NCBI GenBank assembly: GCA_032718475.1
Contig: JAUCBJ010003333.1
Coordinates: 62,001 to 126,000, forward strand
Direction: 5' to 3'
DNA length: 64,000 bases
Source: Nemertoderma westbladi
Taxonomy: Eukaryota > Animalia > Xenacoelomorpha
This document shows positions 31,362-50,689 of the stretch, piece by piece. How positions within the stretch are numbered: the stretch's first letter is position 1; each line of letters starts with the position of its first letter. The notes under the pieces were generated by a model. It ran no database searches. It was given only the letters and a program-made list of their open reading frames with translations, and was not told the DNA's origin. The position numbers were made by a program, and so were the translations under genes.

Positions 31362-31464
31362 AGAATCTTAATAATGAAATTATTAAGAGTGAATTAAGCC
31401 ACCGCAAACTGACGTTACAAGGCGGGAAATTTGAGACTACTACTAAGACAAACACAGTAACATG

Positions 31465-32039
31465 AGTAGTAGAAGAAGAGGTGACCCCAAATTCCGGTGC
31501 TAAATTACGGCGTTTAATTGGCCACATCTGTCACCATCGAGGTAGTTACCATCAACCAATCGTAGCGTATTCACCTACGCGTAGCCTAACCTCGCGTAGC
31601 CCACCTTATTCAACAGCAGCTGTTACCACCCTTCGGTATTGATTCGTATCATTGCTGCAACAACCATCCATTGCATATTCATCTTCGCGTAGCCTAACTT
31701 CTCGACGCATGGCTAGCCCCCAACCCATCGCTATTCGATCAACTGCTGTTACCCACCCACTCACCAACCAACCAACAGCGATACACCCTCAGATTATTCC
31801 CCTTTTCGCCACGCTACCACCTCCACATACTGTATATGGTGACTAAAACGATAACGTGGCCATCTACACGATGCATATACCAAGTCGTTATATTACAGTA
31901 TATTATATCGATTGCCAACTCAACGATTTACATCCCTCCGTTGATAGAGCTACTCAACTGCTGTCGCCAAACCAACAAACCAACCACTCAGTATGATACA
32001 TGTGCATGAAATTCCGCCACGTTCCAGCTACACGTATAC
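31465..32039 (+). repeat. Polinton left TIR
   Basis: Reverse complement of 49593-50203 apart from a 59-bp deletion, a ~24-bp insertion and a few substitutions. Confidence 0.95.
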
Positions 32040-32327
32040 ACACATTAGTGATTATTATTATTATGCAATAATTTTTAATTAAACTGCATTTTCCCTCCCG
32101 GCTAATCAACCAATCAATAAACCGAATTTAGGCTATTTCTCAGTTTAAGACCTGTATTATTTTTGAAAATATCTTATATATATAATCTCTTGCTTTAATC
32201 ACAATTAATCATTTGTAATGGTTTTAGTTTAAAAGTTTTTACTTTGTTTGTTTGATTTACAATAAAATAAATTAAATAATGTCTTCTGATTCCGATATGG
32301 TTATGCCAATAGTAAGGCATTCATTTT

Positions 32328-32720
32328 TTGCAGAAGATGGTCAAGCCTATATTGTTTGATTATACAATTTACCGTCAGGGAGATGATAAATATAAAATTG
32401 AGTTTTCTGAAAAAGCCAGGAAAGTTTTAAGCTCAATTGATATTGATGCTTCTGATAATAGTATTCATCTCTTAGATTACAACCTGAAAGTTGAGCATGA
32501 GGGAAAATTAATCAACATCTTACTATTATCCATGATAGAGGGGTTTATTGTTATTACACAATACAACGAAGCTGGTGAAAAGTTTGAAATACGGCTAAAT
32601 CGGCATAGCCCCTACGAAATTATGTCTTTCTTTATTGTAATGATTTCAAAGGAATCCTTTATCGAACCTGAAGAATCAACAGATAATGTTGAATATGTTG
32701 ATAATATCATTGATTCTTGA
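32328..32720 (+). CDS. Polinton hypothetical protein (possibly frameshifted from ATG 32279)
   Basis: 130-aa ORF in AT-rich context with acidic C-terminus; no motif recognised. Confidence 0.5.
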   Translation: MQKMVKPILFDYTIYRQGDDKYKIEFSEKARKVLSSIDIDASDNSIHLLDYNLKVEHEGKLINILLLSMIEGFIVITQYNEAGEKFEIRLNRHSPYEIMSFFIVMISKESFIEPEESTDNVEYVDNIIDS

Positions 32721-32883
32721 CTTTTCCCTCTATATTATAAATATTTTATGATTATTTATAAAATTTTAATGTTTTTAAATAATCGAAAATTGTAGTAGTA
32801 TTTGTATATACAGTATAACAGTTTTGTTTGTTGTTGTTGTGTATTGAGGTAATTATTTTCAATTTACTTTAAAATTTGGAAAA

Positions 32884-33336
32884 ATGGATATTTTAAATGA
32901 AAAATGTCCAGTTTGCTATTCTAAGTTATTGCAACAACATCGAGATTATTATAAATGTGAAAATAAACATGCAACTTGCGTACAATGTATTGTACAATAT
33001 TCCGAAATGAATAATTATTGTTCTAAAATTTGTCCTATTTGTCGCGCACCCATATCTAAGTTTAATATAAAGTTGGCAAGTTATCAACCCTATTATTGGA
33101 AAGAGCTTCGCAATATAACTTATATTTCTGCGGAAAGTAATGATCCGGGAGATTTATTTACAATATTGGAGAATTTTTTTTATAGAAATGTAGTACGACG
33201 GTGTTGCTACTATATTCCTTATTTTTTTAGCAGCGAACATAAAAAAATCATTAGTGCGAAATTCTCGGGAAGTGATTTCCAAACCGCCGATGTTACCTAT
33301 CATTATTTCGCGTATAAAGATGCTCACCATGCTTGA
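32884..33336 (+). CDS. RING-finger (C3HC4-like) protein, putative E3 ligase
   Basis: CPVC...CENKHATCVQC...CPICR. Confidence 0.85.
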   Translation: MDILNEKCPVCYSKLLQQHRDYYKCENKHATCVQCIVQYSEMNNYCSKICPICRAPISKFNIKLASYQPYYWKELRNITYISAESNDPGDLFTILENFFYRNVVRRCCYYIPYFFSSEHKKIISAKFSGSDFQTADVTYHYFAYKDAHHA

Positions 33337-33553
33337 AATTACATCAGTCTATACTATAATTGGAAATAGCACCTTTTGTTGCAGCGAGCGTCACATACTG
33401 TAGTTGTGTCATATGTTAATTAAATATACAGTACTCTAATATTGTAGTTGCCTCAATTATTGTTATATACATAGTAATGGTGATGGTTTATTGATATTGA
33501 TATTGATATTTATATTATATTGTATTGTTGATATATCTTAATAATAATAATAA

Positions 33554-34234
33554 ATGGCTGACTTTAATTCAGGTCCATATAATTTAAACTTTCAAATGGG
33601 AACGAGTATGATAATTTCTGGGCCATCTGGTTCTGGAAAGTCAATGTTTGTCAGTAATTTAATTAAACACAAGAATGGTTGTTTCAACGAAGCCCCCTTG
33701 CGAGTATTGTATTGTTACGGGAGCAATCTCCCGACTATTCCAGGTATTACTCACCTTTACAAAGGTTTGCCTGAAAATATAGATAGTTTAGTGAATAGTC
33801 GAGATTTATTAATTATAGATGATTTATTAACAGAAACTGAGTCCAGTACAGCTTTAACTGTATTGTTTACTAAGGTAGCTCATCATTCCAATATATTTAT
33901 TTGTTTTATAACGCAAAACATGTTTTACGGTAGGAAGCATAACCGCACAAGATCAATTAATAGCCATACTTTAGTATTAATGAAAAATCCGCGAGACAGT
34001 TTATCAGTTTTAAATTTCGCGAAGCAGATGTTACCAGGGCAGACCAAATTTTTAGTTGATTCCTATCAAGATGCGACAATTGAACCATTTTCACATTTCT
34101 TAATTGATTTACGACAGGAAACACCCGAACATTTAAGATTTAGATCGGATATATTTCGTAATCATAATTGTTACATTAAAAATTACATTGACTATAAACG
34201 TAGTGAAAATAATAATAATAATAATAATAAATAA
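33554..34234 (+). CDS. A32/FtsK-like genome packaging ATPase
   Basis: Walker A GPSGSGKS, Walker B LLIIDD, FITQN, MKNPRD. Confidence 0.95.
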   Translation: MADFNSGPYNLNFQMGTSMIISGPSGSGKSMFVSNLIKHKNGCFNEAPLRVLYCYGSNLPTIPGITHLYKGLPENIDSLVNSRDLLIIDDLLTETESSTALTVLFTKVAHHSNIFICFITQNMFYGRKHNRTRSINSHTLVLMKNPRDSLSVLNFAKQMLPGQTKFLVDSYQDATIEPFSHFLIDLRQETPEHLRFRSDIFRNHNCYIKNYIDYKRSENNNNNNNK

Positions 34235-34271
34235 TTAATATTTTGTAACAATTTTCAATAATGTTGCAACA

Positions 34272-34655
34272 ATGAATAGACTTGTACAGAAATATCGTAA
34301 CGAACTGGAATTTCTACGCAGCGCTACCCCTCAACAAAGAACTTATTTTATTAATCATACCGCGAGTAACGAATTAATACGGCTCATTGTAAATACTGCA
34401 TTAAATGTTCTAAAAGGTAACGTACAATTAACCCCTCATTCATTTAGAAATATTCGCCGCTATAAGAAGGTATTGAAATCACTCAACCGTAAAACAAAAA
34501 ATATATCAAGTTACAGAAAAAAGTTAAGCAATCAATCTGGAGGTATACTACCATTTCTAATACCCTTACTCGGCATTGGTGCGAAACTCGCCGCGAGTGC
34601 CGGTGCCGCCACCGCTGGAGCAGCTATTGCGAAAAAAATTAACCGCGGACGGTAA
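34272..34655 (+). CDS. Conserved small basic Polinton protein (putative virion core protein)
   Basis: NTALNVLKGNVQL and QSGGILPFLIPLLG; Gly-Gly followed by a hydrophobic helix, as in adenain substrates. Confidence 0.8.
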   Translation: MNRLVQKYRNELEFLRSATPQQRTYFINHTASNELIRLIVNTALNVLKGNVQLTPHSFRNIRRYKKVLKSLNRKTKNISSYRKKLSNQSGGILPFLIPLLGIGAKLAASAGAATAGAAIAKKINRGR

Positions 34656-34657
34656 TA

Positions 34658-34828
34658 ATGGTTAAAACAGGAGTAACATTTAGAAAATTATATTTAGTAT
34701 CGAGTAAACCGTTAGCTACTGATTTAAAACCACAAGATATACCTAGAGTAAATACTACAAAAAGAAAACCCTTTAAAACATCAACTTCAAAGAAAATAAT
34801 TAAAAAATTTCAGTTGTTCTTACGGTGA
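34658..34828 (+). CDS. 56-aa basic ORF below the track cutoff
   Basis: MVKTGVTFRKLYLVSS...; starts 2 nt after the previous stop in TAATAATG context. Confidence 0.45.
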   Translation: MVKTGVTFRKLYLVSSKPLATDLKPQDIPRVNTTKRKPFKTSTSKKIIKKFQLFLR

Positions 34829-34879
34829 TGCCCTTTATAAGAGATTTGAATATACATATTACTTGCGGTTGTCGAAAAG

Positions 34880-35968
34880 ATGCCTCGCAAGATGAAACCG
34901 ATTTTAAGCCGAAGCTTAGACAAAAAACTGTTAAGAATTTATTTAGATCCATCATCCCCCGCGGGTTTTGCAAATGTTGCAAAATTAGCAAAAGCTGCAA
35001 ACATCAAACCAGCACAAGCCCAGAAATGGTTGAGCGGGCAAAAGACATACACCCTTCACGCTCCACGTAGACATCATTATCCAACATCTAAAATATTTAC
35101 GGGGGGTTTAAAAGATATATATATGATAGATCTGGTGGATATGCAGCAATATAAATCGCAAAACAATAATTATAACTATATATTAACATGTATTGATGCC
35201 TTTAGCAGGCTTGCTTTTGGCTATGGTATGAAAACAAAAAAGGGTATTGAAATTATTAGTATATTGCAAAAAATATTCCAGAAAGGAAAACCAAACAGAA
35301 TCGCGACTGATCAAGGGTCTGAGTTTCTAAATAAATCTGTAAGAAAATATTTAGATACGTTAGGTATACAGTATTACGTAATGTATTCTGTGAATAAGGC
35401 AGCTATTGTCGAGAGATTCAATAGAACATTAAAAACAAAGATGTTCAAAATTTTTACACAACGAGGAAATAATGTTTGGATTAAAATTTTACCAAAGCTC
35501 ATTTATGCTTATAATAGGTCATATCATAGGACAATAAAAATGACACCTATTGAAGTTAATAAATTTAATGAAACTGAATTAATGAATAGATTATATGGGA
35601 AATATAGACAGATTAATCATAAGAAAATAAAATTTAAAGTTGGAGATACAGTACGATTATCTATCGCTCGTACTGCTTTTGCTAAAGGCTATCGAGAACA
35701 ATGAACACGTGAATTATTTATTATTCATCGTGTCAGGTTGGATAGAGTACCTGCTGTAATGTTCGATATTAAGGACAGCGCTGGAGCTATAATAAAGGGC
35801 TCATTTTATTCTCACGAACTCCAAAAGGTCCACCCGAATAGTAATATTTATCTAGCAATTGACAAAAATATTGGCAAACTTAAAGAACGTGTACGCAATG
35901 GGAAGAAAGAATATTTAGTCCGATTCATCGGATCCAAGAAACAGTCTTGGGTACAGCATATTCAATAA
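34880..35968 (+). pseudogene. Retroviral-type DDE integrase with chromodomain-like tail, one premature TGA
   Basis: IDLVDM, LTCIDAFSR, TDQGSEF, VERFNRTLK. GYREQ*TRELFII at 35702-04 (a Trp position) continues in frame to KERVRNGKKEYLVRFIG..SWV. Confidence 0.92.
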
Positions 35969-36226
35969 GCTTAGGTTTATACTGTATATTAATTCATTTT
36001 GGTCGCATATGACCGTAATTAATCAATATTAACTCGAATGATATTACTATATCTATAGTTCATCCGTTTTAAATAAAGCCAATAAAATATTGATCCCGCG
36101 CATATACTGTAGAAGATGCGACAATGAACGTGGTCACAGATGTCTATAATTTAACATTATACTGTACTGTATGTACAATGGAGTCAAGTAGAGAGAGAGA
36201 GAGCTTAAATAATAATAATAATAATA

Positions 36227-37099
36227 ATGGCCACAGATACATATATCACTCTACTTTCAGATAGCTCATTAAACACTTACCCCAATAATAATCCTAGCGA
36301 GTTTACTGTTGATTTAGCCGAAGAATTATATATTGGTCCAAACGCTAAAATTGGGCTTGCCGAGCTACAATACCAAGCAACATACAGTAATATTACACTG
36401 CAAACTCAAATCTCGCTGTCAATCGGGGTAGATGCAAAAGATGCCAAATTATATAGTTTATTTCCTGGTATGCATAGCTCTATTCAAGTGATTATTGATG
36501 ATATAAATAAACTGTTTAATTCTGAAGCGAAATATAGAGATTTCGAATTCATTTTTAATACAAATAATTCTAGAATTAAATTTAAATTTCCTAAAAAGTT
36601 GAAAAAAATACAATTAAGTCTACGTGGTGATTTAATACAAATTCTAGGCTTAAAACCGTTATTGGATCGGAATCATCCTGGTATTCCGAATTGGGATATA
36701 TACAGTACCACTACAGTAGATGAATTAAGCAATATAGAACAGCCGATATTAATTTTAAATTATAGCGGACCAAAAATTTTGGAAATTGGCATTTTAGATT
36801 TTCCAGCTCCCACGAATATAACACGTAATAAAGACACTATCTTTATATATACAGATATTATTAAGAGCTCATTTGTTGGTGACGCTTTAGCACCGCTCTT
36901 AAGAACCTGCCCTTTAACGCAATTAAATCGAAAATATATTAATCACGAATATGAGAGCATTTGCTATTACCCGTTGTTGAATAAAAAACTAAAAACAATC
37001 TTAATTACTTTACGTGACGGACAAGGCGAATTAATTAATTTTAGCGGAGGTCGCACTGTTATAACACTTAAGTTAATACGGGGTGGCAGTGATGGATGA
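36227..37099 (+). CDS. Minor capsid (penton) protein 1
   Basis: YITLLSDSS..YPNNNPSEFTVDL..IGLAEL; FIYTDII..VGDALAPLLR; YYPL..ITLRDGQGELINF. Confidence 0.9.
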   Translation: MATDTYITLLSDSSLNTYPNNNPSEFTVDLAEELYIGPNAKIGLAELQYQATYSNITLQTQISLSIGVDAKDAKLYSLFPGMHSSIQVIIDDINKLFNSEAKYRDFEFIFNTNNSRIKFKFPKKLKKIQLSLRGDLIQILGLKPLLDRNHPGIPNWDIYSTTTVDELSNIEQPILILNYSGPKILEIGILDFPAPTNITRNKDTIFIYTDIIKSSFVGDALAPLLRTCPLTQLNRKYINHEYESICYYPLLNKKLKTILITLRDGQGELINFSGGRTVITLKLIRGGSDG

Positions 37100-37937
37100 A
37101 TTCTACGTAAGACTACCAAGTAACTCCTGTCCAATTGATTTTCCCCGCAATAGCGCTAGTAATTATCAGATCAATTTCCATGGCGCCTTACCTATAAACC
37201 CAAACGAAAACTGGGTGGTAGGTATAAAAAGTATATTTTACTTAGCTACGTTGCCGTCCATGTATAACAATGTAGAGAATGTTATTTTATTAAAAAAAGG
37301 AAAAAAAAATTTTGAGGATACACTTCCATCCGGTTTGTTCTACAGTATCAATGACATTATAGATTATTTTAACACGGGGGCGTTGAAAGATAAATTACAA
37401 ATAGTTGAAAATACTCAGCAAAATAGGTTGCAATTTATTTTAGGGAAAACTGTGCGAGAGTTATTTATAGGTCAACAATTAGCCTATTATTTTGGAATTA
37501 CTGAAAATAATCTCGGCGCGAATTTAAATCCAAATTTTAAAATTATTTTGAAGACGAAAAATAATATAAAGGGTTATTTAATAAAGGTTATCGGAAATGG
37601 AGAAAAAGCTTACCAGATGGTATTTTTATGCCCTCAACCACCCAATTCTATTCCAGAACCTAAGTCGAACATGTACGTGACTACTAATATAATTGAAAAT
37701 CAATATATTAATGACTTTGGTTTAGCTTTACTTCGTCGTGTTGCGATACCTGATGACGTGAAATATGGTAGCGTAATAAATAAAGAATTTGTCAAGGATA
37801 CAATTCATTATATCCCTGTAAAAAAATCATATAAGATAACATACATTCATATTGAAATAACAGACAAAGAAGGAAAAGATTTGAATTTTGAATACGGGAC
37901 AACATCTATTACATTACACTTTAAACGAATAAATTAA
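37092..37937 (+). CDS. Minor capsid (penton) protein 2, divergent paralogue
   Basis: FYVRLPSNS..FPRNSASNYQI..WVVGI; YVTTNII..ALLRRV; HYIPV..IEITDKEGKDLNF..ITLHFKR. ATG at 37092 overlaps the penton 1 stop region. Confidence 0.88.
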   Translation: MDEFYVRLPSNSCPIDFPRNSASNYQINFHGALPINPNENWVVGIKSIFYLATLPSMYNNVENVILLKKGKKNFEDTLPSGLFYSINDIIDYFNTGALKDKLQIVENTQQNRLQFILGKTVRELFIGQQLAYYFGITENNLGANLNPNFKIILKTKNNIKGYLIKVIGNGEKAYQMVFLCPQPPNSIPEPKSNMYVTTNIIENQYINDFGLALLRRVAIPDDVKYGSVINKEFVKDTIHYIPVKKSYKITYIHIEITDKEGKDLNFEYGTTSITLHFKRIN

Positions 37938-37938
37938 A

Positions 37939-38502
37939 ATGGATTCTGATTTATTTCAAAGATACAGTAAACCTCAATATGGTGGTGCAGACTCGAATCT
38001 TGCTGTTTTTAAAGGTGGTAGAAGTACGAGAGGCTCGACGCAAGTTCCTGTTTTTCGAGGTGGTTCATATATTGACCCTTACGGTCAACAAATTGGCGCA
38101 TTTGGTCCAAACTTAAAACAACGTCGTTTTCAGCATTATCGTAGAGGTATGCGGGCAAATCAACACGGAGAAGGTATATTTACAGACGCTTTATCGACAT
38201 TGAAAAAATTTGGTAAGCCATTAGCTAAAAAAGTTTTACAGAAAGCTTTACCATTTACCACAAAATTTATGAGACAACATGTAATACCAAAAGGTAAGCG
38301 GGTCTTACATCAGCAGGCTAATACGGTTATTAATAAAGCATTAAATAAAATGAAACCGTCGACAAGGTCAGTTGTAGAAAAAGTTTATAGAGATTTAAAG
38401 CCACCCGCTAGACCAATGTCTATGAACATACATCATCGACGTAGTAATAAAAATAAAAAAATAAAGGGCAAACTGAAACACTGCGAAAAAAGTATTTTTT
38501 AA
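37939..38502 (+). CDS. Basic core/membrane-active precursor with adenain-type sites
   Basis: YGG, FKGG, FRGG and QHGEG, followed by amphipathic IFTDALSTLKKFGKPLAKKVLQKALPF; basic C-terminus. Confidence 0.75.
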   Translation: MDSDLFQRYSKPQYGGADSNLAVFKGGRSTRGSTQVPVFRGGSYIDPYGQQIGAFGPNLKQRRFQHYRRGMRANQHGEGIFTDALSTLKKFGKPLAKKVLQKALPFTTKFMRQHVIPKGKRVLHQQANTVINKALNKMKPSTRSVVEKVYRDLKPPARPMSMNIHHRRSNKNKKIKGKLKHCEKSIF

Positions 38503-38504
38503 TA

Positions 38505-39764
38505 ATGTCAATTATTAAGGAATTAGATTTATTTTCTACACAGCCAATACAGACTGAATTTAAAGCAAAGCATTATGAAACAATTTACCCCGTATCTAAT
38601 CTCAGAAGTGAGTCTAGAGAAGTCACGTTCCTTGTACCGAGATCCAAAGAATTCTATACGAAACTGCAAGATGCGTTATTAATTACAAAATGTACTGTAC
38701 GGTGGGATAGACGACTTGAAAATTCTCATATATATATGCTGAATTACCCCGCTGAAACTATGTGGAGTGATATTAAAATAGACCTTAATGAGAAGCAGGT
38801 TGAAAATAGCAATAACCATTATTTCTACAAGTCGTACTTATCCAATTTACTATTTATAACTTACGAGGATAAAAATGGGCTACTGGGTGCGGGTGGCTTT
38901 CATCAACCTTTATCTGAGCACGGAAATGAAATTGACCCCGGCGCGCATCCTATTGGCGATGCCTTTAGTAAACAAATGCAATTTGTAAGTGGATTGACTA
39001 TTGATTTTGATACTGAAAGCAAAATAATACAACCTGGGTATGATTTAAGAATGCATTTTAGAAAAGTATCAAATTCGTTTATTTTTAAAATCACTCCAAA
39101 CGCAAACGCGGTGACAAATCTTCGGCTAGAATTAGATGAAATAAAGATCCTAATCCCTAGAATGGAGGTTAATCCGGTAATAGAAAGCAGTCACCTAAAA
39201 GGTTTAGAGAGTTACGATATTGAATATCAATTCCAAAAAAAGGAGGTTACAACATTTACTATTCCCGCTCAAACCACAAATTACACCCAAACAAACATAT
39301 TTGATGGTAAAAAACCCAAATTAGTTATTATCGGCTTCATAACAAATAACGCTTATTCGGGAGAATTAATTAGCAATCCCTTGAAATTTGAACATTTTAA
39401 CCTTACACGCGCGGAACTGATTGTAGACGGTCTTCCAGTAGGTGGTGTAATATACGAGCCTAATTTTACAGATGGAACATATATTTTTGAGTATACTCAA
39501 TTAATGAAGAACATTAATACATATATTAACGGTTATGGAGGTAATAATATAGACCATGAAACCTACTTAGGTAATTGCCCCATCCTATCCTGGGACTTAA
39601 CCGCCGACGGCTATGTTAGAGATCCGCAACCGTCGATATATACTAACGGCCAATTAAAATTAAGATTTGCCGAACCGTTGGTTGAAACCATAAATGTAAT
39701 CGTTTTTAATATTTATGATCAATCATTAAGTTTAAATAGCAGGAAAGAAATACATATCGATTAA
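38505..39764 (+). CDS. Double jelly-roll major capsid protein
   Basis: ELDLFSTQPIQT, KPKLVIIGF..NAYSG..NPLKFEHFNL, WDLTAD, LKLRFAEPL. Confidence 0.93.
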   Translation: MSIIKELDLFSTQPIQTEFKAKHYETIYPVSNLRSESREVTFLVPRSKEFYTKLQDALLITKCTVRWDRRLENSHIYMLNYPAETMWSDIKIDLNEKQVENSNNHYFYKSYLSNLLFITYEDKNGLLGAGGFHQPLSEHGNEIDPGAHPIGDAFSKQMQFVSGLTIDFDTESKIIQPGYDLRMHFRKVSNSFIFKITPNANAVTNLRLELDEIKILIPRMEVNPVIESSHLKGLESYDIEYQFQKKEVTTFTIPAQTTNYTQTNIFDGKKPKLVIIGFITNNAYSGELISNPLKFEHFNLTRAELIVDGLPVGGVIYEPNFTDGTYIFEYTQLMKNINTYINGYGGNNIDHETYLGNCPILSWDLTADGYVRDPQPSIYTNGQLKLRFAEPLVETINVIVFNIYDQSLSLNSRKEIHID

Positions 39765-39790
39765 GTATATTATCTACAGAGGACCTTGAT

Positions 39791-40219
39791 ATGTTTCCAG
39801 TGGGTGGTCACTATTTGGGTGCGTTTCCAGCTAATAAATTACCTAAATTAGATAATAATAAGCGAAGAGACTATGGCTTAATAGTAAATACCGATAAAGA
39901 GCATCTACCCGGGATTCATTGGATCGCGATATATATACGAGATAATGAAGCTGAATTATTTGATTCATTCGGATCAAAATATCCTAACAGATGCATCGAA
40001 AAATGGCTTGAGAAAAATTCCGCAAGGTGGCGTACTACTCGCAAACAATTTCAAGACCCAAGGAGGACCACATGCAGTCTATACTGTCTTTATTATTTGG
40101 TAAATCGAATTCACACAAACTATCCAATGAGCGCGTTTACAAATAATGTGGAAATAAATGAAATAATATTATATAAATGGCTTGTTAATTATTATAAAAT
40201 AAACCAACAAGCGTTGTAA
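39791..40219 (+). CDS. Adenain-like cysteine protease
   Basis: IVNTD..PGIHWIAI, FDSFG, Q..TTCSLYCLYY. The frame stays open a further ~17 codons upstream. Confidence 0.92.
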   Translation: MFPVGGHYLGAFPANKLPKLDNNKRRDYGLIVNTDKEHLPGIHWIAIYIRDNEAELFDSFGSKYPNRCIEKWLEKNSARWRTTRKQFQDPRRTTCSLYCLYYLVNRIHTNYPMSAFTNNVEINEIILYKWLVNYYKINQQAL

Positions 40220-40250
40220 TTAATCATTTAACTTTTGTTTATCAGATAAA

Positions 40251-40853
40251 ATGGATAATATTATTTTTGTTGATTTTCAATATTATAAGATAGACAATAA
40301 AGAGTATCCGGTAGTATTTAAAGAATTTGCTATATTTGATTCTAATTACACCAAAACTAATGTAAAGACGTATTTAATTAAAGGCCCACCTAATATTAAG
40401 TTATCAGCTTTAGATGTAGCTCACATAAACAATTTACGAGACATGACTTCTCATTTGCCCTGGGACTACGGTGACATTTCGCAAGATGAGTTTAAAAAAT
40501 ATATGAAGAGACATTTAAAATATAAAAAAAATATATATGTATTTGGGTTGCTGAAGCGGGCAATATTAGTTTCCCAACTCGATGTTCTCGCGCCAAATTC
40601 GGTGGAGAAATTGGGAATATATAAGCAATATCATGATTATTTAACCCCCTGTCGCTTTCACGATCAATTTATTGCACTGGAAAATAAATGTGCGTTCCAC
40701 TTAAACACAAAGGATAATTGTCTGCGGTATTGCTCAGCAAAATGCGTTGGGGGGTATGAGATGCTACACTTTTTCATGAGAAAGCGTTTAACTGCGACTG
40801 ATGATGATAAACAGAAAGAAATAACTGCGGTGGAAGATGTACTCATACTGTAG
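40251..40853 (+). CDS. DnaQ-fold/Maelstrom-like nuclease
   Basis: IFVDFQYY..VFKEFAIF..LIKGP..TSHLPWDYG..KCAFH......RYCSAKCV. Confidence 0.65.
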   Translation: MDNIIFVDFQYYKIDNKEYPVVFKEFAIFDSNYTKTNVKTYLIKGPPNIKLSALDVAHINNLRDMTSHLPWDYGDISQDEFKKYMKRHLKYKKNIYVFGLLKRAILVSQLDVLAPNSVEKLGIYKQYHDYLTPCRFHDQFIALENKCAFHLNTKDNCLRYCSAKCVGGYEMLHFFMRKRLTATDDDKQKEITAVEDVLIL

Positions 40854-41442
40854 GTTTAACTGAGGTGGAAGATGTACTCTTACAGTAGGTTTACTCTAAG
40901 CTTGTAATGTGATGGGATAATATATTTGTTTTAATGTCAATAAAAAATAATAAAAACATTAAAATCTTTTTTTATATCACTGTTTACACTCACAAACACA
41001 ACACACCTACCGGTAGCCGACTGTTGTATCAGAGTTTAACTACCAGTAGCTAGCTGACTTTACACATACAGACATATAGAATGGCAGAATGGTGCCCTTC
41101 TAGACTGACAGCAACCACAAGGCTTTAGCACAAGGCTTACTAAATTAACTCAACATGGAGGGTTCGTGAATGCTGCATTAGAGAGGCCCTCCTAACAATA
41201 GGCCTACTGGTACCGAGGGCCCTGTAGCCCAGTACTTGAGGATAGAGCAAGGGCATACCGCTTTCTTTGATTTAAGGATTACACTATTACACTTGAATGC
41301 TTCCAATTTTCTGTTTACAACTTTAATTGGTCTAATCTACATTACTGCGGGCGGGCTACTACTGTCGCATAGGTAAGCCTATACAGCTATAGTTAACTTT
41401 ATGCGGGGCCCTTTTTCGAATGTTGACCCAATATGGTTTATG

Positions 41443-41823
41443 GTTAACCTTTAGTACTCGCGGATAGGTAAGGTACACTTTCATTCGGTTAGGCATATAG
41501 GCCTAATGACTTACTCCTCAACTGAAAGTTGACTAGCTCATTGATACAATAGGTGTGGTTAGGTACCGGTAGCGCTATAGGTCCTATAAAATCCCCTCGC
41601 ACTCTCTGTTACTAACTTTCTACATTCACTCTATGTTGTATGCTTCTTTACAGTTAACCTTTAGAACTCTTGGTTAGGGGCGCCATCATTCAACCAGTCA
41701 TATAATGGCTCCACTCGGATACAATAGGTGTGGCTCGCGGTATACCTAACTAAGCCTATATAAAATCCACCCCATTCTCTGTTACTAACATTCACTCTAT
41801 GTTGACGGAGGGACTATATAAAA
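41443..41823 (+). promoter_or_regulatory. Duplicated ~175-210-bp unit with TATA boxes in the Polinton central spacer
   Basis: GTTAACCTTTAG (41443, 41653), GATACAATAGGTGTGG (41543, 41718), TATAAAA (41585), TATATAAAA (41757, 41815). The first two TATA boxes are each followed by ACATTCACTCTATGTTG. Confidence 0.5.
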
Positions 41824-41963
41824 CATAGTTAATTTATTTATGTATTCGCTTTTTTTTTTAAATTATATATAAAATAGATTCAGGCTACTAAGTTTTATAA
41901 GCAACAATAACTGATAACAATAACAACAACAACAACACTAAATTTATTACTGTATTATACTTT

Positions 41964-42368
41964 TTATAGTCCTATATGTGGGTCCCTCTGTAGAGTTTCC
42001 TCCATTGCTGGTACCTGTAAATGGTTGTTTATAGGCCTAACTTCTACCGGTCTTTGTGATGGTATATTGAAGTGAAGCGTGTCATCAACATCATTCTCCC
42101 AATTTTCGCTAGAGGGTGAGCTTCCCGATATTTGCGGTTGTATCTTTATAACAAGCGAGAAATCTTTTGAAATTTCAACCTTTGTAGGCGATAAAGGTAG
42201 ACCTACTCCATATTCTACCGAAGTAAACCCAATCTCAAATTTTTTGTTTATATATCGCAACTCTATCTCAGCAATATTGGATGCTGCGAGATATGTTTCG
42301 TCGCTTGATTGCAATTCGATTTTGATACAACTTTTCAACTCACGGTTATTGAAAAAGGCGAATGTCAT
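41964..42368 (-). CDS. Polinton hypothetical protein
   Basis: 134-aa ORF co-oriented with the pPolB cluster; no motif recognised. Confidence 0.5.
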   Translation of the reverse strand: MTFAFFNNRELKSCIKIELQSSDETYLAASNIAEIELRYINKKFEIGFTSVEYGVGLPLSPTKVEISKDFSLVIKIQPQISGSSPSSENWENDVDDTLHFNIPSQRPVEVRPINNHLQVPAMEETLQRDPHIGL

Positions 42369-43058
42369 CTTCGAGTTGAGGTAAGTTGTCGTCGTCGTCG
42401 TAACTAGGTACCGGAAAGAATATCTTTAAATTGAATAGGTAGGCCTACTGATATTTTTTTTTCTTCTTTTGTTTAACAAAATTATAGTTCACTGTCAGAA
42501 AAATTGAGTTTATATATATTTTTGTAGAGGGTCGCAGATGTGTACATTACAAAATTCTCATAGTTAACAAAATGCACAACATAAACCTTTCCCATGCGGA
42601 TTAGCGATATATGCTCTGGTCGTTGTTCTATTCTGAATGTAGGGAGATGCATAGCCGATGTTTTAATGATATGTACCGGTATACAGACTAGTAACAGATA
42701 GGAGGGCATCGTCTTTGACTATGAATACCAGCACATAGCCCTAATCTTTTCTCACCGAGCTTAGCGTTGCCCACCGCACTCACGCACACTCATAAGTAAC
42801 AGATGCGCTATTGTAACTCACTTGTGAGCAACAATGCCAAGTTAGCTAGCTAGCTAGCTACAGCCCCTGAGTATACTATGCCTACTTGAGTGTTACAAGC
42901 AGCAATCGCTCTACCGAAGTTAATTTCCCCTCAAACTAGTTGTTGATTTTAAAAAAAAATATTCATAATTTTTTTCCAACCAATTTAATATATATATATA
43001 TTTTACAGTAAAAATCTCCACCACCAAACAGCAACAACAACAATAAATTTCACTCACA

Positions 43059-43637
43059 CTAATTATATTTTACAACAAAAACCCTCGCACCAAACAATAA
43101 TAAATTATTAACCAGTTTGTTGAATATAGGGTAATATATATGAAATTTAAACGGGGAACACATTAATGTACATTTACCGGTGTAGAAGCAGCAAACAACA
43201 ACATTATTATTTATTCTGACTTTACAGTTATTGAATATTTCAGGTTCATATATAACTTGAAGTTGCACATTATCAAAGACAACATAAAACCCGGTATTGT
43301 TTATCAATAACCTATAGACTACAGACTTAATACTAAAAATATAAGTACATAAATTAACAGATTTTAAAATCAAATTAATACTAGTTTTATCAAATATATG
43401 CTTTTTTACTTTTTGGAAATTATACTTACTGCCTAATAATGTAATACAACCATTTTTAAATATTAATAATGTAGCGCCAAATATCTTATATATAAACTGA
43501 TTTGGTTTGAGTATGTGTTTACCAGATAATTGATTTTTTAATTCTTTAAAATTAATCGCTAACACTTGCTGGCAACTTATATTTTTATTTACTATTTGAT
43601 AATTCATCATCAATACCATCGTCTTTTGGTTCTTCAT
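43059..43637 (-). CDS. TATA-binding protein (TBP)-like protein
   Basis: Two TBP-like repeats: QIVN..INFKEL..KPNQFIYKI..TLLIFKNGCITLLGSK and SVNL..YEPEIF..VVVCCFYTGKCTL. Overlaps the pPolB 3' end. Confidence 0.8.
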   Translation of the reverse strand: MKNQKTMVLMMNYQIVNKNISCQQVLAINFKELKNQLSGKHILKPNQFIYKIFGATLLIFKNGCITLLGSKYNFQKVKKHIFDKTSINLILKSVNLCTYIFSIKSVVYRLLINNTGFYVVFDNVQLQVIYEPEIFNNCKVRINNNVVVCCFYTGKCTLMCSPFKFHIYYPIFNKLVNNLLLFGARVFVVKYN

Positions 43638-46600
43638 AAATTGGTATATTTGATATTTTTATAGGTTTTTTGAGGTTTGTTTTATAGTGCCCCCAAGGAA
43701 GCGAATGATTTTTATTAACCCAATAAAGTTTATCGTCAAAGCTACTGAGTGCAAATTTATTTTGCTTTAAGGTATAAATACGATGTAATTTAGATTGAAA
43801 TCTGTGTATGTTTTTTTTTATTTCTTCATTTGAGTTATATGCTTTTAAATATTCTTCATGTGTAATATTCGTTTCCACAACAGCTCTTGTAATACCTTTT
43901 GCTCTACGAATATTTTTATTATTCCATTCCAAAGTTGAATATAATTTTGGTCTTAAAAATACTGCTTGTTTAATTTCACGTGAGGCTAGTTCGTCTTTAC
44001 AGTAATAGAGTCTGGATTTATTTTTATCGCTGTAGAGGGGGTGATCCTTAGGGTAATTGGAAGTATCTAAAATATTATTTTTAATTAATGCTTTTAAAAA
44101 ATTATTCTGCGATGTATTATAATAACAACCTATCAATGAGTCAGTGTCTGATGCAGCAATTTCAATACGACAGTTTAATTCTTTCTCAATAGGTAGCAAT
44201 TTATTGTAATACAGCTCATACATATCCAATTTAGCCAAGTCCAACACAGCGCTACCAATAAATATAGGCTTATCGAGAGTTACAGAGTCTTTCACTAATA
44301 AATGTCCCGATAATGTATTATTGTATATTATAAATTGTTCATGATTAATACGATTTACCAATTGATCGCATTTATCGTTGCTATTTGCGATACGAAAGTT
44401 ACATCGGTCTCGTATCCTCTCTATTGATTTGCCAAACAGTGAATTATTGAGCAATTTCGCGACAGCAGTTTCAATGTAACTTTTTGCTAGGCGCCTTTGA
44501 TTAATATTAAAATCTATGTAATTTTTAAATACAAATTCTTGTTGAAAAGAATATAATTTATGTAGTTTAGTAACAATTAATCCATGTTTTATATAAAATT
44601 TTAACAGTTTCAAATGTAAATGATAAAACTCTTTATCAAATTGCGTCAGCAAGAGTTTTGGTGTAGACATCCTATATTTACGGGAGGTACCTCTTTGTAT
44701 CGATAAATTATTAAATTGTTCCCGCATATAAGGCGAAAGCATTGTTTCATTTATACTTAAATGCTCTGGGGCTAACGGTAATTGTAATGTTTGATCGTGA
44801 ATAGCCTTGGGATAATTTAAATCATATATTAAAAAATATCCAGTAGATCCATCAATGTCTAAATCTACCAAGTACTCGATTAGTTTTTCTGGAATTGCAT
44901 TCTCCAAATGTTTAATACTTACTTCTTTGAATTGCGAGGTGGGTAGTTTTTTACTTAAATTCCCAGAATATAAAGAGTTGAAATCAATATTAAAAATATG
45001 GCATTCTTCCTTAGTAGAATCATATGTACTTGTTCCAGGTATATTTGATTCTATATAATGCTTTCGATAAAATTATACACCACCCCTAATTGATTTTTCA
45101 AAATCTCTATATGTTTGATAATCCTTTATTAATTCTATTTTACATTTATTATATTTTAGCGCGCAATCATAGGTAAATGACGCAATACTACAGTAAAAAA
45201 CCACTTCTAAATCGTAATTTTGTTTACAAACATTCCTAAAATTCTCAAATATATCAGCAAGCAAACAAACATCGAGTTTTAAATAGGCTAAAAGATAATC
45301 TTTGAGATTCACACAGTCGAATTCTACCCATGATAATCCTGCAAACCTATAATCTTCAATTGTGCATGTTTTTTGTGTTAAGTTACTAAAAAAATTATTT
45401 ATAGACGGCAAACCAGTATCATTAAATTTATTAATATCTGTCAAGTACTCGTATGGAAATACTCCTTTCCGTTTAATTGTTGAGTTATTCAAGTTTGGAT
45501 AAAAATATTTCATTTCTTGTAGAGTAATAGGTAAAATTGAGCTTATATCATGACTCGCTACATCCTTTGTTGAACACTCAACTAAATTACTTAGGGAAAA
45601 GCTTAAAAATTGATATGTGTCTAAGAAACGTAACTCAATTTTTTTAGAAGTGTTTTTAATTGGGATAAACGCACTCAGTGAAATATATCGTTCTGTATTT
45701 CTCGGTATAACCTTTATATCCCAATCGGTGTATTTCTTATCTCTAAATCCGGTTTGTAATATACAATGTATATCGTAATTACTGGAATTGTGCCCGCAAA
45801 GTACATACAGGTATCGTTTCAATGATAAACTTCGGTTACAACTATTACAGGCTGCTGCAATATATTTACCTGTAATATGTGAATGATGTCTGTTTTTCCC
45901 AACATTATTATTTAAAGTAACATTACAATAGAAACAAAATTTTGCCTGTTCAAAATTTACAAAATCAATATTAGTAAATGACATAGTTTTATGAGTGTAT
46001 ATGTCTGACCAACAACATAATTCAGTTAAATCAAAATATAATGAATCTAAGAAATCTTGAATACAATTATTATTATTATTTGACTTTACGAATGTTTTCA
46101 AATGACATTTTGGGGGGGTTAATTAATTCAGTATTGGGAACAATTAAATAACTCGCAGCACACGGTATATGCTCCTGTATAAATTGATTATTAACTGAAG
46201 GTTGTAAGATACATTCTATATCGAAGTAGGTGACAAACAATGGGGATAAGGTTCTATCTAAATTTGTAAAACTAATGTGTGTTCTTTTTTTATTAGGCAG
46301 TTTCTCTCGTTGACTTCTTCCTTGGTAGCATGCAAGACGGTGTCGTTGGAGAACTTCCGATTGAAAAAAATGAGCCAAACACCTTTCACAATATTTCCTA
46401 TTCCCGATATGAAGAGCTCTCGTATTCAGCAATCGATTCAAGTTAGTTATGCAAACATAATGATTCAGTTTAGGTACATTGTTATTTTTTACTACAAGTA
46501 ATATATTTAATAACTCTTTATCGGGTGTAATTTTACTAAACGGTGGTTGTCTTAATATAGATACGGGGGCGCGTTTGTTGTCGTTATTCCAACATAGTAA

Positions 46601-47647
46601 ATTAATTATATATTTTGAATTTTGTTTTTCAAAAAGTTTAATCGCTAACAGCCACTCTGTTGGATAATCTTTGTTCCCGTTGTCAAAAATGAAATGACTC
46701 ATATAATTTTTGTACGATGAAGTACGGTTTTTGTGATCTTTCACTTTGCTACTAAATTTTGCGGCTATAATAGCCCATTTGAAACAGTCATTATCTACCG
46801 TTTGAATATTTATTGTACATTTTTTAGCTGATAGAGCCTTAGGTAATTCCATATATCCATGCCCCTTATATAGTAACGACCTACACTTAGATTCAGCTAA
46901 TTTAATTTCAACCCTTAATAAAGATTTAATACGCCATCCCGAACCACGTGTGTTAAAGATGGCTATTTTTTGTAATATATTTTCCACAACATACTCAAAC
47001 CATGTGTCAAAACTTTGCGGCGAATCTACAGTATTAATAGCACCACCGGAAGAATTAAAATAAAAGGTTTCCAATTGCTCGCCTTCTGAAAAATGTGATC
47101 TGTACATTAATACTTTTAGACCTAACCACAGTCTAAGAACATTCATTTCTTTCAATCTATCTAATATTAACTGAAGAATATTACCTCGAATTTGTGCTAA
47201 TGCTGTTTCTACATCGGGATAATCTCTAGAAGTTGGGAGGTCGTGGACATAAATTTCAAGACGATTATCGTGAGCTTCTTGTTCCCGCGTAAAAATTGTT
47301 GCGCATGTACCAAGAGCCACCCTTAAGTTTTTTCTGGATATTATATTTTTATGTTGCGGAAATTTACGCTTTCTTGTGTAGTAACATTTCAAGTGACAGT
47401 TGTGTCGTATATAATTCTCATATGTATACTCTTTATTACAGGTAGAACAAGTCAATTGATAGGTGCGGAACTCCATTTCTTTACAACCAGTAGTCGATTC
47501 ATGTCGTTTACAAATTTCGCTGCATGAAGTCACAACATGACACTTAAAACAATAATAACTTTCAAAATGTGACCGTAGGTGGCGTAAGTAATTATGTCTA
47601 GTTACATTCATATGACAGAATGAACAACATATTGTTATTTTATCCAT
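43585..47647 (-). pseudogene. polB: Protein-primed family B DNA polymerase with N-terminal Zn fingers, terminal-protein/vOTU region and EndoVII-like insert; one frameshift, one nonsense codon
   Basis: GSGW, DNDCFKW/HYVCI, ExoI YFDIE, RHHSHITG..CNSCN, ExoII HNSSNYD, RKGVFPYEY, ExoIII YLKLDV, SIRGGV*(45073-75), IDFNSLY, KLLNNSLFGK, SDTDS. Removing one base from the G7/C7 run at 46112-18 joins the frames. Confidence 0.95.
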
Positions 47648-47853
47648 GTTGAAGTTTGTTAGTTTGTTTAGATAAATAATAATAATAATAATAAAATATG
47701 TCCAAAGATTAAAATGAAATGAAATGAAATGAAATGTTATTGACTATATCTAAACATTTATATGCTAGTGAGGGAAATAATTTTAAACCAATCACCAATC
47801 ACCAATCGCTTATGACTATTAGAAACCACAAAGAGTTTAACTTATGATTAGGT

Positions 47854-48919
47854 TTACATATTAGGATAATAATCAGGTTTCCATGGAGAATTAGTAACAG
47901 GCTCTACTAGAGCTGGGTTACTGACAACTTTCTGTTTCTTTGCAGGTGATGTGTTGGTAAATTTACTCGATGATCTTGGCTTCCGAGGTAATATTTCAGG
48001 AAAGACCTGTTGCGGTTGAGAGCAACTCTCTTCAACATCCAGATTAGGTGATGGGATCTCTACGAAAGCTTTAGGTTTATCCAAAAGGACAAAACCGTCA
48101 ACATTGGCTTCAATAAGAGAAACGCCATCCATAGCCTCTTTGAGAAAACTAATATGGGCTTTATCATTCAAGTAATGCAACTCGATAGAATTTCCGCCGG
48201 CCCCTACTTCAGTAGAATTATCAGTGTTGGTGATAATAATTTTTTTATTATTGGTTTTAATCATTTTGAGACGGTCTGATAATTGAATGATATTTTTATC
48301 AAAAAGATGCTTGTCTGTTTCATCGACTTGGTTGTCCCACTCTCGCAACAAAACAGTTAGTTCCTGTTTTGACAAATTGAAACCTGTATAAATAGTTAAA
48401 ACCAACACTATCAGCGTATCTGAGGCTGATTTTCCATAAGCCAACATAGTTGGTTCCTTTAAAAGCTGTTACAAATCCAATAAACTCTGGATTTGATAAT
48501 TCAATGTAGAATTGATCGCTAATAATCTCTAGCGGTGGAGAGAGAAATTGCAATAATTTCCCTCTGTATTGAATTAGAACTTCAGTAAAAGCTTTGTTGA
48601 GAACTTTACATTTGCCTTGTTTCTGAACGTAAACATCACCCGATGTGGGGTTGATGGAAATATTCAAATTTCCCCGCGCAAAACGAAGAGTGGGATATAT
48701 CCTACCTGGTATAATTGCTGGTCTGGATTGATGTTGGTTGTTGTTGGTTGTTTCTAGAATGTCTAACAAATAGCGGGTATCTTGATGGGAAAAACAAATT
48801 GATTCGTTGTCCTCCTGAGATTCCACAATAAAATACTTGCTGTGAACGACGGTACAAGTATATTTATTGTAAGTAAATTTCCAGCTATTTGTTGCTCCGG
48901 TTTTTTGCGTTAAGGCCAT
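47854..48919 (-). pseudogene. PC4-like ssDNA-binding/coactivator protein split by a frameshift near 48395
   Basis: GFVTAFKGTNYVGLWK (first frame) joins TGFNLSKQELTVLL (second frame), matching the PC4 pattern V..FKG..YV.I....G..L...W..L. Confidence 0.6.
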
Positions 48920-49013
48920 AATAATAATAAATACGAAAAATATTACAAGTGATAAATTTTAAACCGTATCGCTGTAATAAATTGACACCATAGTTCTCAC
49001 TCTAAAATTGTGT

Positions 49014-49175
49014 TTGGTCGGAAGACGACGCCTGATAAAAATGATGCTGAGTTCGACATTAGGTATCGACTCAAAAACAAAAATCGTGTGAGACACGTAG
49101 CTCAGATTTTCGTTTTTAGGTCGATACCCAATGCTGGAATCAGTATCATTTTATGTGGTGTCGTTTTCCGACCAA
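49014..49175. repeat. Long imperfect hairpin (~72-bp arms, 19-nt loop)
   Basis: 49014-49085 versus the reverse complement of 49105-49175: about 13 mismatches plus 1 gap. Confidence 0.9.
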
Positions 49176-49592
49176 CGAATATACAATGAGTAAGATAATG
49201 TATAAATTATTAAGGAAATAACACAATGTCTGAGTGAGAACAAAAAAAATTAGATATGGTATCAATATATTACCATGAAGATTACAAGTGATGAATTTTA
49301 GTAAAAACATTCAGTTATATATAAATTTGTGATGGGGCATAGTCAACGAAGAAGAGATGGGACGTGTCATAATCATCGACGAATAAGAAAAGAGATGGGG
49401 TGCAACGTGGTTGAATGGTTGGTTGGTTACGTGGACAGGAAATATGTGAAAGAATATGAATCATAGGGTTGTGTGTAATAATAATCAATAATTATTATAA
49501 AAACGCACAGTATAATGTTAGTAGTAGTAGCCTTTCAATATGGCACAGATGCTGCGGGATCGGTTAGCTTGAGTAACTACTTGGAAATGTTC

Positions 49593-50203
49593 GTATACGT
49601 GTAGCTGGAACGTGGCGGAATTTCATGCACATGTATCATACTGAGTGGTTGGTTTGTTGGTTTGGCGACAGCAGTTGAGTAGCTCTATCAACGGAGGGAT
49701 GTAAATCGTTGAGTTGGCAATCGATATAATATACTGTAATATAACGACTTGGTATATGCATCGTGTAGATGGCCACGTTATCGTTTTAGTCACCATATAC
49801 AGTATGTGGAGGTGGTAGCGTGGCGAAAAGGGGAATAATCTGAGGGTGTATCGCTGTTGGTTGGTTGATCGAATAGCGATGGGTTGGGGGGGCTAGCCAT
49901 GCGTCGAGAAGTTAGGCTACGCGAAGATGAATATGCAATGGATGGTTGTTGCAGCAATGATACGAATCAATACCGAAGGGTGGTAACAGATGCTGTTGAA
50001 TAAGGTGGGCAACGCGAGGTTAGGCTACGCGTAGGTGAATACGCTACGATTGGTTGATGGTAACTACCTCGATGGTGACAGATGTGGCCAATTAAACGCC
50101 GTAATTTAGCATCGGAATTTGGCATTTTTAATAGTCCTCCGAGATGTAGCCCATAGCCCAAGCTAGGGAGGAGTTCGTTGGGGTCACCTCTTCTCCTACT
50201 ACT
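49593..50203 (-). repeat. Polinton right TIR
   Basis: Mirror of 31465-32039. Confidence 0.95.
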
Positions 50204-50689
50204 AACATGGACTGGCAGAAATGAGTGTGGGCTCTATGTACTAATACAGTAATGCGATATTTGTGTAAGTATTTGGGGAGTATCAAGAGAGGTGGGAGAG
50301 GCTGATTTTCCTCTATTGCTGCTGGCTTTTCTATTCCTCCGTTTCTATACCGACCACACCCCCCCCCCCCCCTTCTCTGTCTACCCCCATCCCTCCCCTA
50401 GCACCCGCACCCCTTGTTACAACATTAAACAATAATTCTAGGTATAAGTTCGTTTTATATTTTAAAAAAATCCATGTTTTCATTAATTTATACGCTCAAT
50501 AATTCCGATATCTGAAGTATTTCATTAAAATATAAATATGATGTCAACGCACCGAAGCCATTACATTACGTCATAACAAAGATACAGCTACCATAAAGTC
50601 AATCAAATTGTTTTAGAAAAAAATTGTGGATATTTTGATAAGCACATTAAGACGTTTAGAAGTGTTCAACTTGGGTTTTAATATTAATC

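Follow-up and report, generated by a model that had tools for sequence, protein, structure and literature searches.

A divergent two-repeat TATA-binding protein homologue beside the DNA polymerase gene in a lineage of Maverick elements

Judged from its sequence, the open reading frame (ORF) at 43059-43637 on the minus strand is a homologue of the TATA-binding protein (TBP), encoded by a Maverick/Polinton element next to its protein-primed family B DNA polymerase (pPolB), and the relatives recovered from metagenomes suggest that one Maverick lineage has a sizeable, conserved branch of TBPs linked to pPolB. Both the identity of the ORF and this lineage-level picture are well supported. TBP homologues encoded by viruses are already known as such, from large DNA viruses; what is new here is the lineage-level TBP branch in Mavericks. 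To our knowledge, little has been established about how Mavericks and Polintons control their genes, and most of their accessory genes lack annotation.

The ORF lies in the window, by which we mean the whole 64,000-nt stretch of Nemertoderma westbladi DNA that was analysed, within an element of ~18.7 kb (~31461-50209) that is bounded by terminal inverted repeats and has a lower G+C content than its flanks. The element is a Maverick/Polinton of the adintovirus type, with the following main features:

31461-32046, no strand: left terminal inverted repeat, extended to 31461 by local alignment with indels
33554-34234, plus strand: gene for a packaging-type P-loop ATPase (Pfam Pox_A32, 19.1 bits, below the cut-off)
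34880-35704, plus strand: rve integrase gene (Pfam rve, 42.8 bits)
38505-39764, plus strand: putative major capsid protein gene, 419 aa, assigned by position and size
39791-40219, plus strand: adenovirus-type cysteine protease gene (Pfam Peptidase_C5, 23.4 bits against a cut-off of 21.3)
43059-43637, minus strand: TBP-like gene, 192 aa from the first ATG (ORF and translation, Pfam TBP, hhalign)
43585-47647, minus strand: pPolB gene, which precedes the TBP-like gene
49586-50209, no strand: right terminal inverted repeat, including a 59-nt insertion at 50123-50181

The core blocks of the inverted repeat (31487-32046 and 49586-50122) are 99% complementary, and the arms, ~590-620 nt long, differ by the 59-nt insertion on the right and a 25-nt insertion on the left (31740-31764). 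A 6-bp target-site duplication was sought at the inferred element ends and none was found. Outside the element, in the host flank, an inverted repeat at 24467-24572 consists of long opposed G and C runs of ~20 nt each.

The pPolB gene was recognized by Pfam traces of DNA_pol_B_2 and Endonuclease_7. It has 253 longer homologues at E <= 1e-5, the named ones mostly from invertebrate animals (sea spider, mite, spider, snails, coral, flatworm) and three labelled as bacterial MAGs. In the window copy, three separate reading frames make up the gene (46076-47647, 45073-46122 and 43585-45072), with an in-frame stop at 45073-45075, after ...SIRGGV, and a frame change (46076-46122) beside a run of seven Cs at 46112-46118, where a homopolymer assembly error may be responsible. 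The integrase is interrupted as well: in a tblastn comparison, 34937-35965 matches the 348-aa integrase of the related contig L026, which combines rve and chromo domains, and the match continues in frame past the stop at 35702-35704, so that the C-terminal chromodomain part is not in the same ORF. Because of the stops and frame changes in these two genes, the window locus itself may be inactive.

The ATPase shares 38% identity (E 3e-40) with an ORF of L026, and the protease has homologues in the related contigs L039 and L037. The putative capsid ORF has no Pfam match and aligns to a 429-aa ORF that occupies the corresponding place in L039 (26% over 416 aa, E 8e-45). Also between the terminal repeats are a RING-type gene, a small adenovirus-pX-like ORF and two adjacent ORFs of ~285 aa (36227-37099 and 37092-37937). 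These two resemble each other's relatives, with N-terminal (~60 aa) and/or C-terminal (~90 aa) parts that match paired ORFs of ~480-530 aa in L039 and L037, and by this similarity they look like shortened paralogous virion proteins. A Pfam scan of the ~18.7-kb element detected no RNA polymerase subunit. Between the convergent gene blocks lie 2.2 kb (40854-43058) with no ORF longer than 134 aa and no similarity to genes of the related contigs, of which the part at 42700-43058 is high-copy and indel-rich among copies; in related elements, two genes (~184 and ~500 aa) lie downstream of the TBP gene.

The TBP-like ORF has no internal stop. Its first ATG is at 43637, and it overlaps the end of the C-terminal pPolB reading frame, whose stop is at 43585-43587, by 53 nt; the ATGs at codons 7, 10 and 11 are possible alternative starts, since all of them lie upstream of the first conserved residues. 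The earlier note on this DNA, made from the letters alone, had described an intact ORF overlapping the pPolB end and had picked out the strings KPNQF..TLLIFKNG....GSK and YEPEIF..CCFYTGK; we find 192 uninterrupted codons, the overlap just given and both strings in the translation. A scan of the window with a TBP HMM identified this as its sole TBP-like ORF, the runner-up reaching only 5.9 bits. The 3' end of pPolB contains two canonical-looking TATAAAA boxes (43656-43686, minus strand), which precede the first ATG of the TBP-like ORF by ~26 and ~49 nt; the pair may be a chance occurrence in AT-rich DNA.

Several profile and pairwise comparisons place the protein in the TBP family. Pfam PF00352 matches the 192-aa protein with 30.4 bits (E 3.5e-7), above the gathering cut-off of 22.9 bits. 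Each half also matches on its own, residues 1-100 with 17.7 bits (E 0.0032) and residues 101-192 with 18.8 bits (E 0.0014), and one co-linear alignment spans both, as for two tandem TBP repeats in a single chain. For reference, a degenerate stirrup motif was used to retrieve TBPs from IMG/VR, giving 17 loci, from which 11 two-repeat viral TBPs were used; six of the reference TBPs scanned in Pfam scored 102-199 bits. An HMM of the 11 viral TBPs matched the window protein with 26.2 bits in one co-linear domain over both repeats, with 7.4 bits as the best score among 2000 shuffled proteins, and hhalign of the single window protein against the same 11 TBPs returned a probability of 94.5% (E 7.9e-8, 150 columns). 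The best single match among the compared sequences is a eukaryotic TBP, and BLASTP against a eukaryotic TBP gave 29% identity over 139 aa (E 2e-7); in the alignment, pairwise identity to TBPs is 18-28%. TBP clusters made up 29 of the 30 matches in an ESM Atlas feature search (score 0.94), and a profile of the window protein with the viral TBPs returned 1980 TBPs, among the best 120 of which haloarchaeal TBPs dominate. The claim of a Polinton-encoded TBP homologue is thereby borne out: Pfam above its cut-off, hhalign, BLASTP and the tree described below all agree on a two-repeat TBP homologue by pPolB.

Single-query searches returned less. With phmmer, the window protein found no TBP in the PDB, only myosin noise (E 0.2); a word-index search yielded 108 candidates, none at E <= 0.01; scans of IMG/VR with the window protein and with the pPolB piece, as well as a metagenome scan with the window protein as the single query, gave no relatives. 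Four small IMG/VR records with a TBP gene were considered as instances of Polinton linkage and rejected, as they are fragments of larger viruses without pPolB. Two IMG/VR loci (L004:284-1426 and L016:284-1426), also on larger-virus fragments without pPolB, encode the same 381-aa viral protein, in which a lone TBP repeat at residues 107-172 (Pfam, 54.9 bits) is followed by a long basic, repeat-rich tail.

The two repeats of the window protein are laid out as follows:

43359-43601, minus strand: TBP repeat 1, approximately residues 13-93, with N17, F48, F60, G63 and G69
43092-43343, minus strand: TBP repeat 2, approximately residues 99-182, with V107, Y130-E-P-E-I-F135, F151 and G154

All residues named in these two lines sit in conserved TBP columns, the stirrup motif as Y130-E-P-E-x-F135. 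When residues 1-100 were scanned in Pfam, protein positions 13-72 aligned to profile positions 2-67, and the strongest stretch of the Pfam match in repeat 2 is residues 126-159. In TBP-DNA structures, two pairs of Phe kink the DNA, and minor-groove contacts are made by the Asn/Val of strand S1 and the Thr of strand S5 in both repeats. The earlier note had suggested by eye that all four intercalating Phe positions are kept, and three alignments agree with it, placing F48, F60, F135 and F151 in the four conserved TBP Phe columns. The minor-groove set is incomplete: N17 and V107 are kept, and N19, S105, L68 and M159 are changed. Together, N19, L68, S105, M159 and C160 replace the nearly invariant V, T, N, T and G of TBPs, and the NNC after F135 likewise departs from nearly invariant residues. 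The changes at the four groove positions suggest a divergent TBP member rather than a canonical reader of the TATA box. In the alignments, the S2-S3 hairpin of repeat 1 is ~5 residues shorter than in canonical TBPs, and the window protein has no N-terminal extension.

Fold prediction gives only moderate support to the saddle comparison proposed earlier, the saddle of TBPs being two alpha/beta repeats whose strands form a curved ten-stranded sheet. A model from the single sequence was unusable (pLDDT 38); AlphaFold2 with an alignment of 39 TBPs reached a pLDDT of 62.5 and a pTM of 0.51. All 44 Foldseek matches of this model in the PDB at E <= 0.001 are TBPs, and an aligner independent of Foldseek also ranked TBPs as its top five and its only full-length matches (Z 8.4-9.8 over 166-177 residues), with the next match at Z 6.8 and single-repeat look-alikes below 6.9. 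Repeat 1 is modelled well (pLDDT 74-89), residues 93-136 are below 50, and the Foldseek TM-scores are only 0.35-0.44. In the BFVD, the model comes closest to TBP-like proteins from large DNA viruses (16 matches at E <= 0.001). As the input alignment consisted of TBPs, the comparison is partly circular, and we count it as compatibility, not as independent proof.

Copies of the element provide a view of how the gene varies. Several public DNA runs of one organism contain the stretch in very many contig pieces (2700 in one run), indicating that the element family is high-copy; parts of it are also present in a run of a second organism, and contigs in three runs bridge the junction between pPolB and the TBP-like gene. 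Among the genomic copies, the best-supported 40 of 80 substitutions in the TBP-like ORF fall on third (24), first (12) and second (4) codon positions. Taken singly, 20 of these 40 are synonymous, against an expected 18.7% (p 7.6e-6), in a count where variants are linked on common haplotypes, some share one codon and the 5' 53 nt overlap pPolB. In the neighbouring pPolB piece, synonymous changes account for 12 of the 17 listed substitutions. Indels listed within the TBP-like ORF are all single-base insertions, three per contig within 12 nt, so that the frame is kept; indels of 1, 2 and 4 nt occur just past its stop and in the spacer beyond. As read from variation among the copies, the TBP-like gene is shown to be under coding constraint. 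These observations bear on whether the ORF could be a non-functional relic of a captured host TBP, or a chance ORF in AT-rich DNA. The low identity to any TBP, the failure of phmmer to find a TBP in the PDB with the single protein and the broken state of other genes in the window copy would fit such an origin; the Pfam score above the cut-off, the clean shuffle control, the synonymous-biased variation with its frame-keeping indels and the presence of homologues at the same place in distantly related elements all oppose it. We disfavour this explanation and consider it exceedingly unlikely.

Those homologues were found through the polymerase. A profile of the C-terminal part of pPolB, built from eight sequences, led to 150 confirmed metagenome contigs, of which the best 80 were kept and scanned in six frames with an HMM for TBP-like ORFs. 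Ten of the 80 contigs carry one, in every case on the strand of pPolB and at a distance of 0.46-5.6 kb downstream from the pPolB match, so that the linkage between pPolB and TBP, for which a survey had been proposed, recurs beyond the window. Counted by the length of sequence available downstream, the ORF is present in 10 of 52 contigs (at least 700 nt), 10 of 41 (at least 1100 nt) and 9 of 31 (at least 1600 nt), an accessory distribution that agrees with the earlier statement that TBP is outside the Polinton core gene set. All ten TBP-bearing contigs rank within the top 30 pPolB matches. Where at least 1100 nt follow pPolB, the gene is present in 10 of the 14 loci from this top 30, versus 0 of 27 from the other 50. 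Rescanning the 80 loci with a family HMM added no further TBP-like members. The pPolBs of the TBP-bearing relatives are only 36-39% identical to that of the window. The related contigs combine pPolB with Endonuclease_7, an integrase of rve-chromo type, an ATPase, a protease, a capsid-like ORF and a PLA2-like ORF, and their content of pPolB, integrase, ATPase, protease and capsid-like genes marks them as Mavericks.

The relatives make the family recognizable as a unit. When the window protein was used as the lone query among all ORFs of the 80 loci, the top 8 matches were TBP-like ORFs, and all 11 members (the window protein and its 10 relatives) match Pfam TBP. A profile of the family aligns to canonical TBPs with a probability of 99.5% (E 9.2e-23, 178 columns), and in the PDB its matches at E <= 0.001 comprise 35 distinct sequences, each of them a TBP or a TBP fusion construct (best E 1e-27). 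In a tree with 2 eukaryotic, 8 archaeal and 11 viral TBPs, the 11 Maverick sequences form one branch (ultrafast bootstrap 100, SH-aLRT 99), apart from the sampled cellular and viral TBPs; the phylogeny suggested in the earlier note therefore sets them off as a group. The window protein's own branch is very long (4.1 changes per column) and its composition deviates, which makes its exact place inside the Maverick branch unsure. Against 1.84 billion protein representatives, the family profile found 5081 matches at E <= 0.001, 40 of them at E <= 1e-30. Among the best 150 of the 5081, the Maverick profile outscores the canonical one by more than 20 bits for 120, and the canonical profile scores higher for 28; the library thus has at least 120 clusters at 50% identity that fit the Maverick profile better.

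Conservation within the family is concentrated at a few positions. N17, P45, F60, G63, G69, E131, E133 and F135 are invariant and F151 is nearly so; at the first Phe position of repeat 1, most relatives have L, M or I instead. The short hairpin of the first repeat is common to the family: the window protein aligns without a gap to 7 of the 10 relatives, and the other three (L042, L046 and L037) have 1-3 extra residues.

The distribution of the gene also bears on one account of its role in which transcription plays no part, namely that the protein is an architectural DNA bender that bends the AT-rich termini for origin opening or genome condensation. The tight, conserved same-strand linkage with pPolB speaks for it, as do the two copies of a ten-base box, ATATACWGTA, in each terminal repeat of the window element. 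Yet 31 of the 41 related contigs that extend at least 1100 nt past pPolB lack the gene, which is hence not needed for replication in the wider lineage, and some relatives have one to several ORFs between it and pPolB (up to 5.5 kb in L030). The second-stirrup Glu residues of TBP are the contact for TFIIB, and their conservation fits contact with a factor better than plain bending. We regard a purely architectural role as very unlikely.

What, then, could such a protein do for the element? We lean slightly towards the view that this highly divergent, pPolB-linked two-repeat TBP of a Maverick-specific branch serves as the element's private promoter factor. With its concave face it would attach to AT-rich boxes between the element's genes and bend them, the conserved stirrup of the second repeat would recruit host TFIIB and RNA polymerase II, and transcription of the element's genes would in this way depend less on host TFIID. 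In TBPs, the hairpin and the groove residues have roles in DNA preference and TFIIA contact; the shortened first-repeat hairpin and the replaced N19, L68, S105 and M159 may thus go along with a changed DNA preference and a lost TFIIA contact. A DNA-bending promoter factor that still docks TFIIB, without the TFIIA-side hairpin and with an altered sequence preference, is the most economical reading of the invariant S1 Asn, three of the four Phe positions, the repeat glycines and the stirrup Glu residues. Because the groove positions differ and the first Phe of repeat 1 is replaced in most relatives, the canonical TATA box may not be its target.

A candidate for a different target is the box that also occurs in the terminal repeats, represented here by the following copy:

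36102-36111, plus strand: ATATACWGTA box, candidate cis-element

Other exact copies in the element start at 31828, 31894, 32806, 33424, 35980, 36698, 49729 and 49795. Of 11 exact copies in the window, 9 fall within the element, and 8 of these 9 are outside ORFs; allowing at most one mismatch, there are 47 against 16.5 expected, and none of 100 shuffles gives as many. The RING gene has a copy 78 nt upstream, the ATPase gene one at 130 nt and the first ORF of the virion block two, at 125 and 247 nt, so that distances to ORFs vary from 78 to ~250 nt. The box is near-palindromic and AT-rich, and its core resembles what we take to be an arthropod-type initiator. It is not common to the relatives, where the core occurs in 7 of 97 loci; k-mer sharing among upstream regions gave nothing clear, and no common promoter box was seen by eye in three related contigs. 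ATATACWGTA as the target of the TBP-like protein is therefore speculation. A more specific version of the promoter-factor proposal, in which a trimmed private TBP without the TFIIA-side hairpin and with changed groove residues reads an element-specific box, possibly ATATACWGTA, in place of the host TATA box and still docks host TFIIB, seems to us rather unlikely.

That the related elements share no convincing promoter box is also a point in favour of a decoy or competitor, which the earlier note had raised beside a promoter-recognition role. Such a protein, keeping the partner-binding stirrup and the overall TBP shape, would mainly sequester host TFIIB, NC2, Mot1 or TAF-type partners, or occupy host TATA boxes, so that host transcription is damped or redirected rather than the element's promoters activated. 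The YEPE(I/L)F stirrup with its Glu pair, invariant in the family, and the several changed DNA-groove positions of the window protein would suit this role. However, a pure partner-binding decoy would not need the Phe set and N17, and the window protein keeps all four Phe positions and N17, of which N17, F60 and F135 are invariant and F151 nearly invariant in the family. We consider a decoy unlikely, and the private promoter factor remains the reading that we prefer.

Finally, we would like to place the Maverick protein among the TBPs of cells and viruses. With the cellular TBPs of eukaryotes and archaea (PF00352) it shares two tandem repeats, co-linear over ~150-178 columns, as well as the four Phe positions, N17, the repeat glycines and the YEPE(I/L)F stirrup. 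It differs from them in its low sequence identity, its shorter first-repeat hairpin, the missing N-terminal extension and the fact that it is encoded by a mobile element. Among viral proteins, its likeness is to the TBPs of large DNA viruses (giant viruses, phaeoviruses, the asfarvirus B263R type and the herpesvirus UL87/BcRF1 type), which are the best BFVD neighbours of the model. The late factor of the UL87/BcRF1 type reads a non-canonical late-promoter box in herpesviruses, and by analogy it would be the closest mechanistic counterpart of the role proposed here. Large DNA viruses have genomes of ~100 kb to more than 1 Mb, and several have their own polymerase or a multi-protein late complex, whereas the window element is ~18.7 kb long with no RNA polymerase subunit detected; moreover, the Maverick TBP branch stands apart from the 11 sampled viral TBPs in the tree.

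In the literature on polintons, Mavericks or adintoviruses together with TBP or TATA, as far as the text was available, we found one precedent, a figure label. Starrett et al. 2021 (PMC8502044; preprint 10.1101/697771) use "TBP" as a gene label in MELD viruses with an adintovirus-like PolB, and the available text does not make discernible which element bears the gene. The likeness, to the extent that this text shows it, is that of a TBP homologue in a mid-size virus-like element with PolB and integrase; the same text holds no analysis of the TBP protein, its distribution or its synteny. Unlike the MELD viruses as they appear there, the window element has its named polymerase relatives mostly in invertebrate animals. 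Other literature matches on viral TBP concern mirusvirus-like or giant-virus TBPs.

The TBP-like gene offers a marker for annotating this Maverick lineage in invertebrate genomes and metagenomes. Should the more specific reading with an element-specific box be true, a virus of less than 20 kb would possess a self-contained switch for hijacking RNA polymerase II to transcribe its virion genes, and no smaller virus with such a switch would be known. Were the protein a promoter factor, it would give a tractable handle on Maverick transcription, with one small protein and defined intergenic targets, and would represent a natural experiment in how far a TBP can be trimmed and still work.
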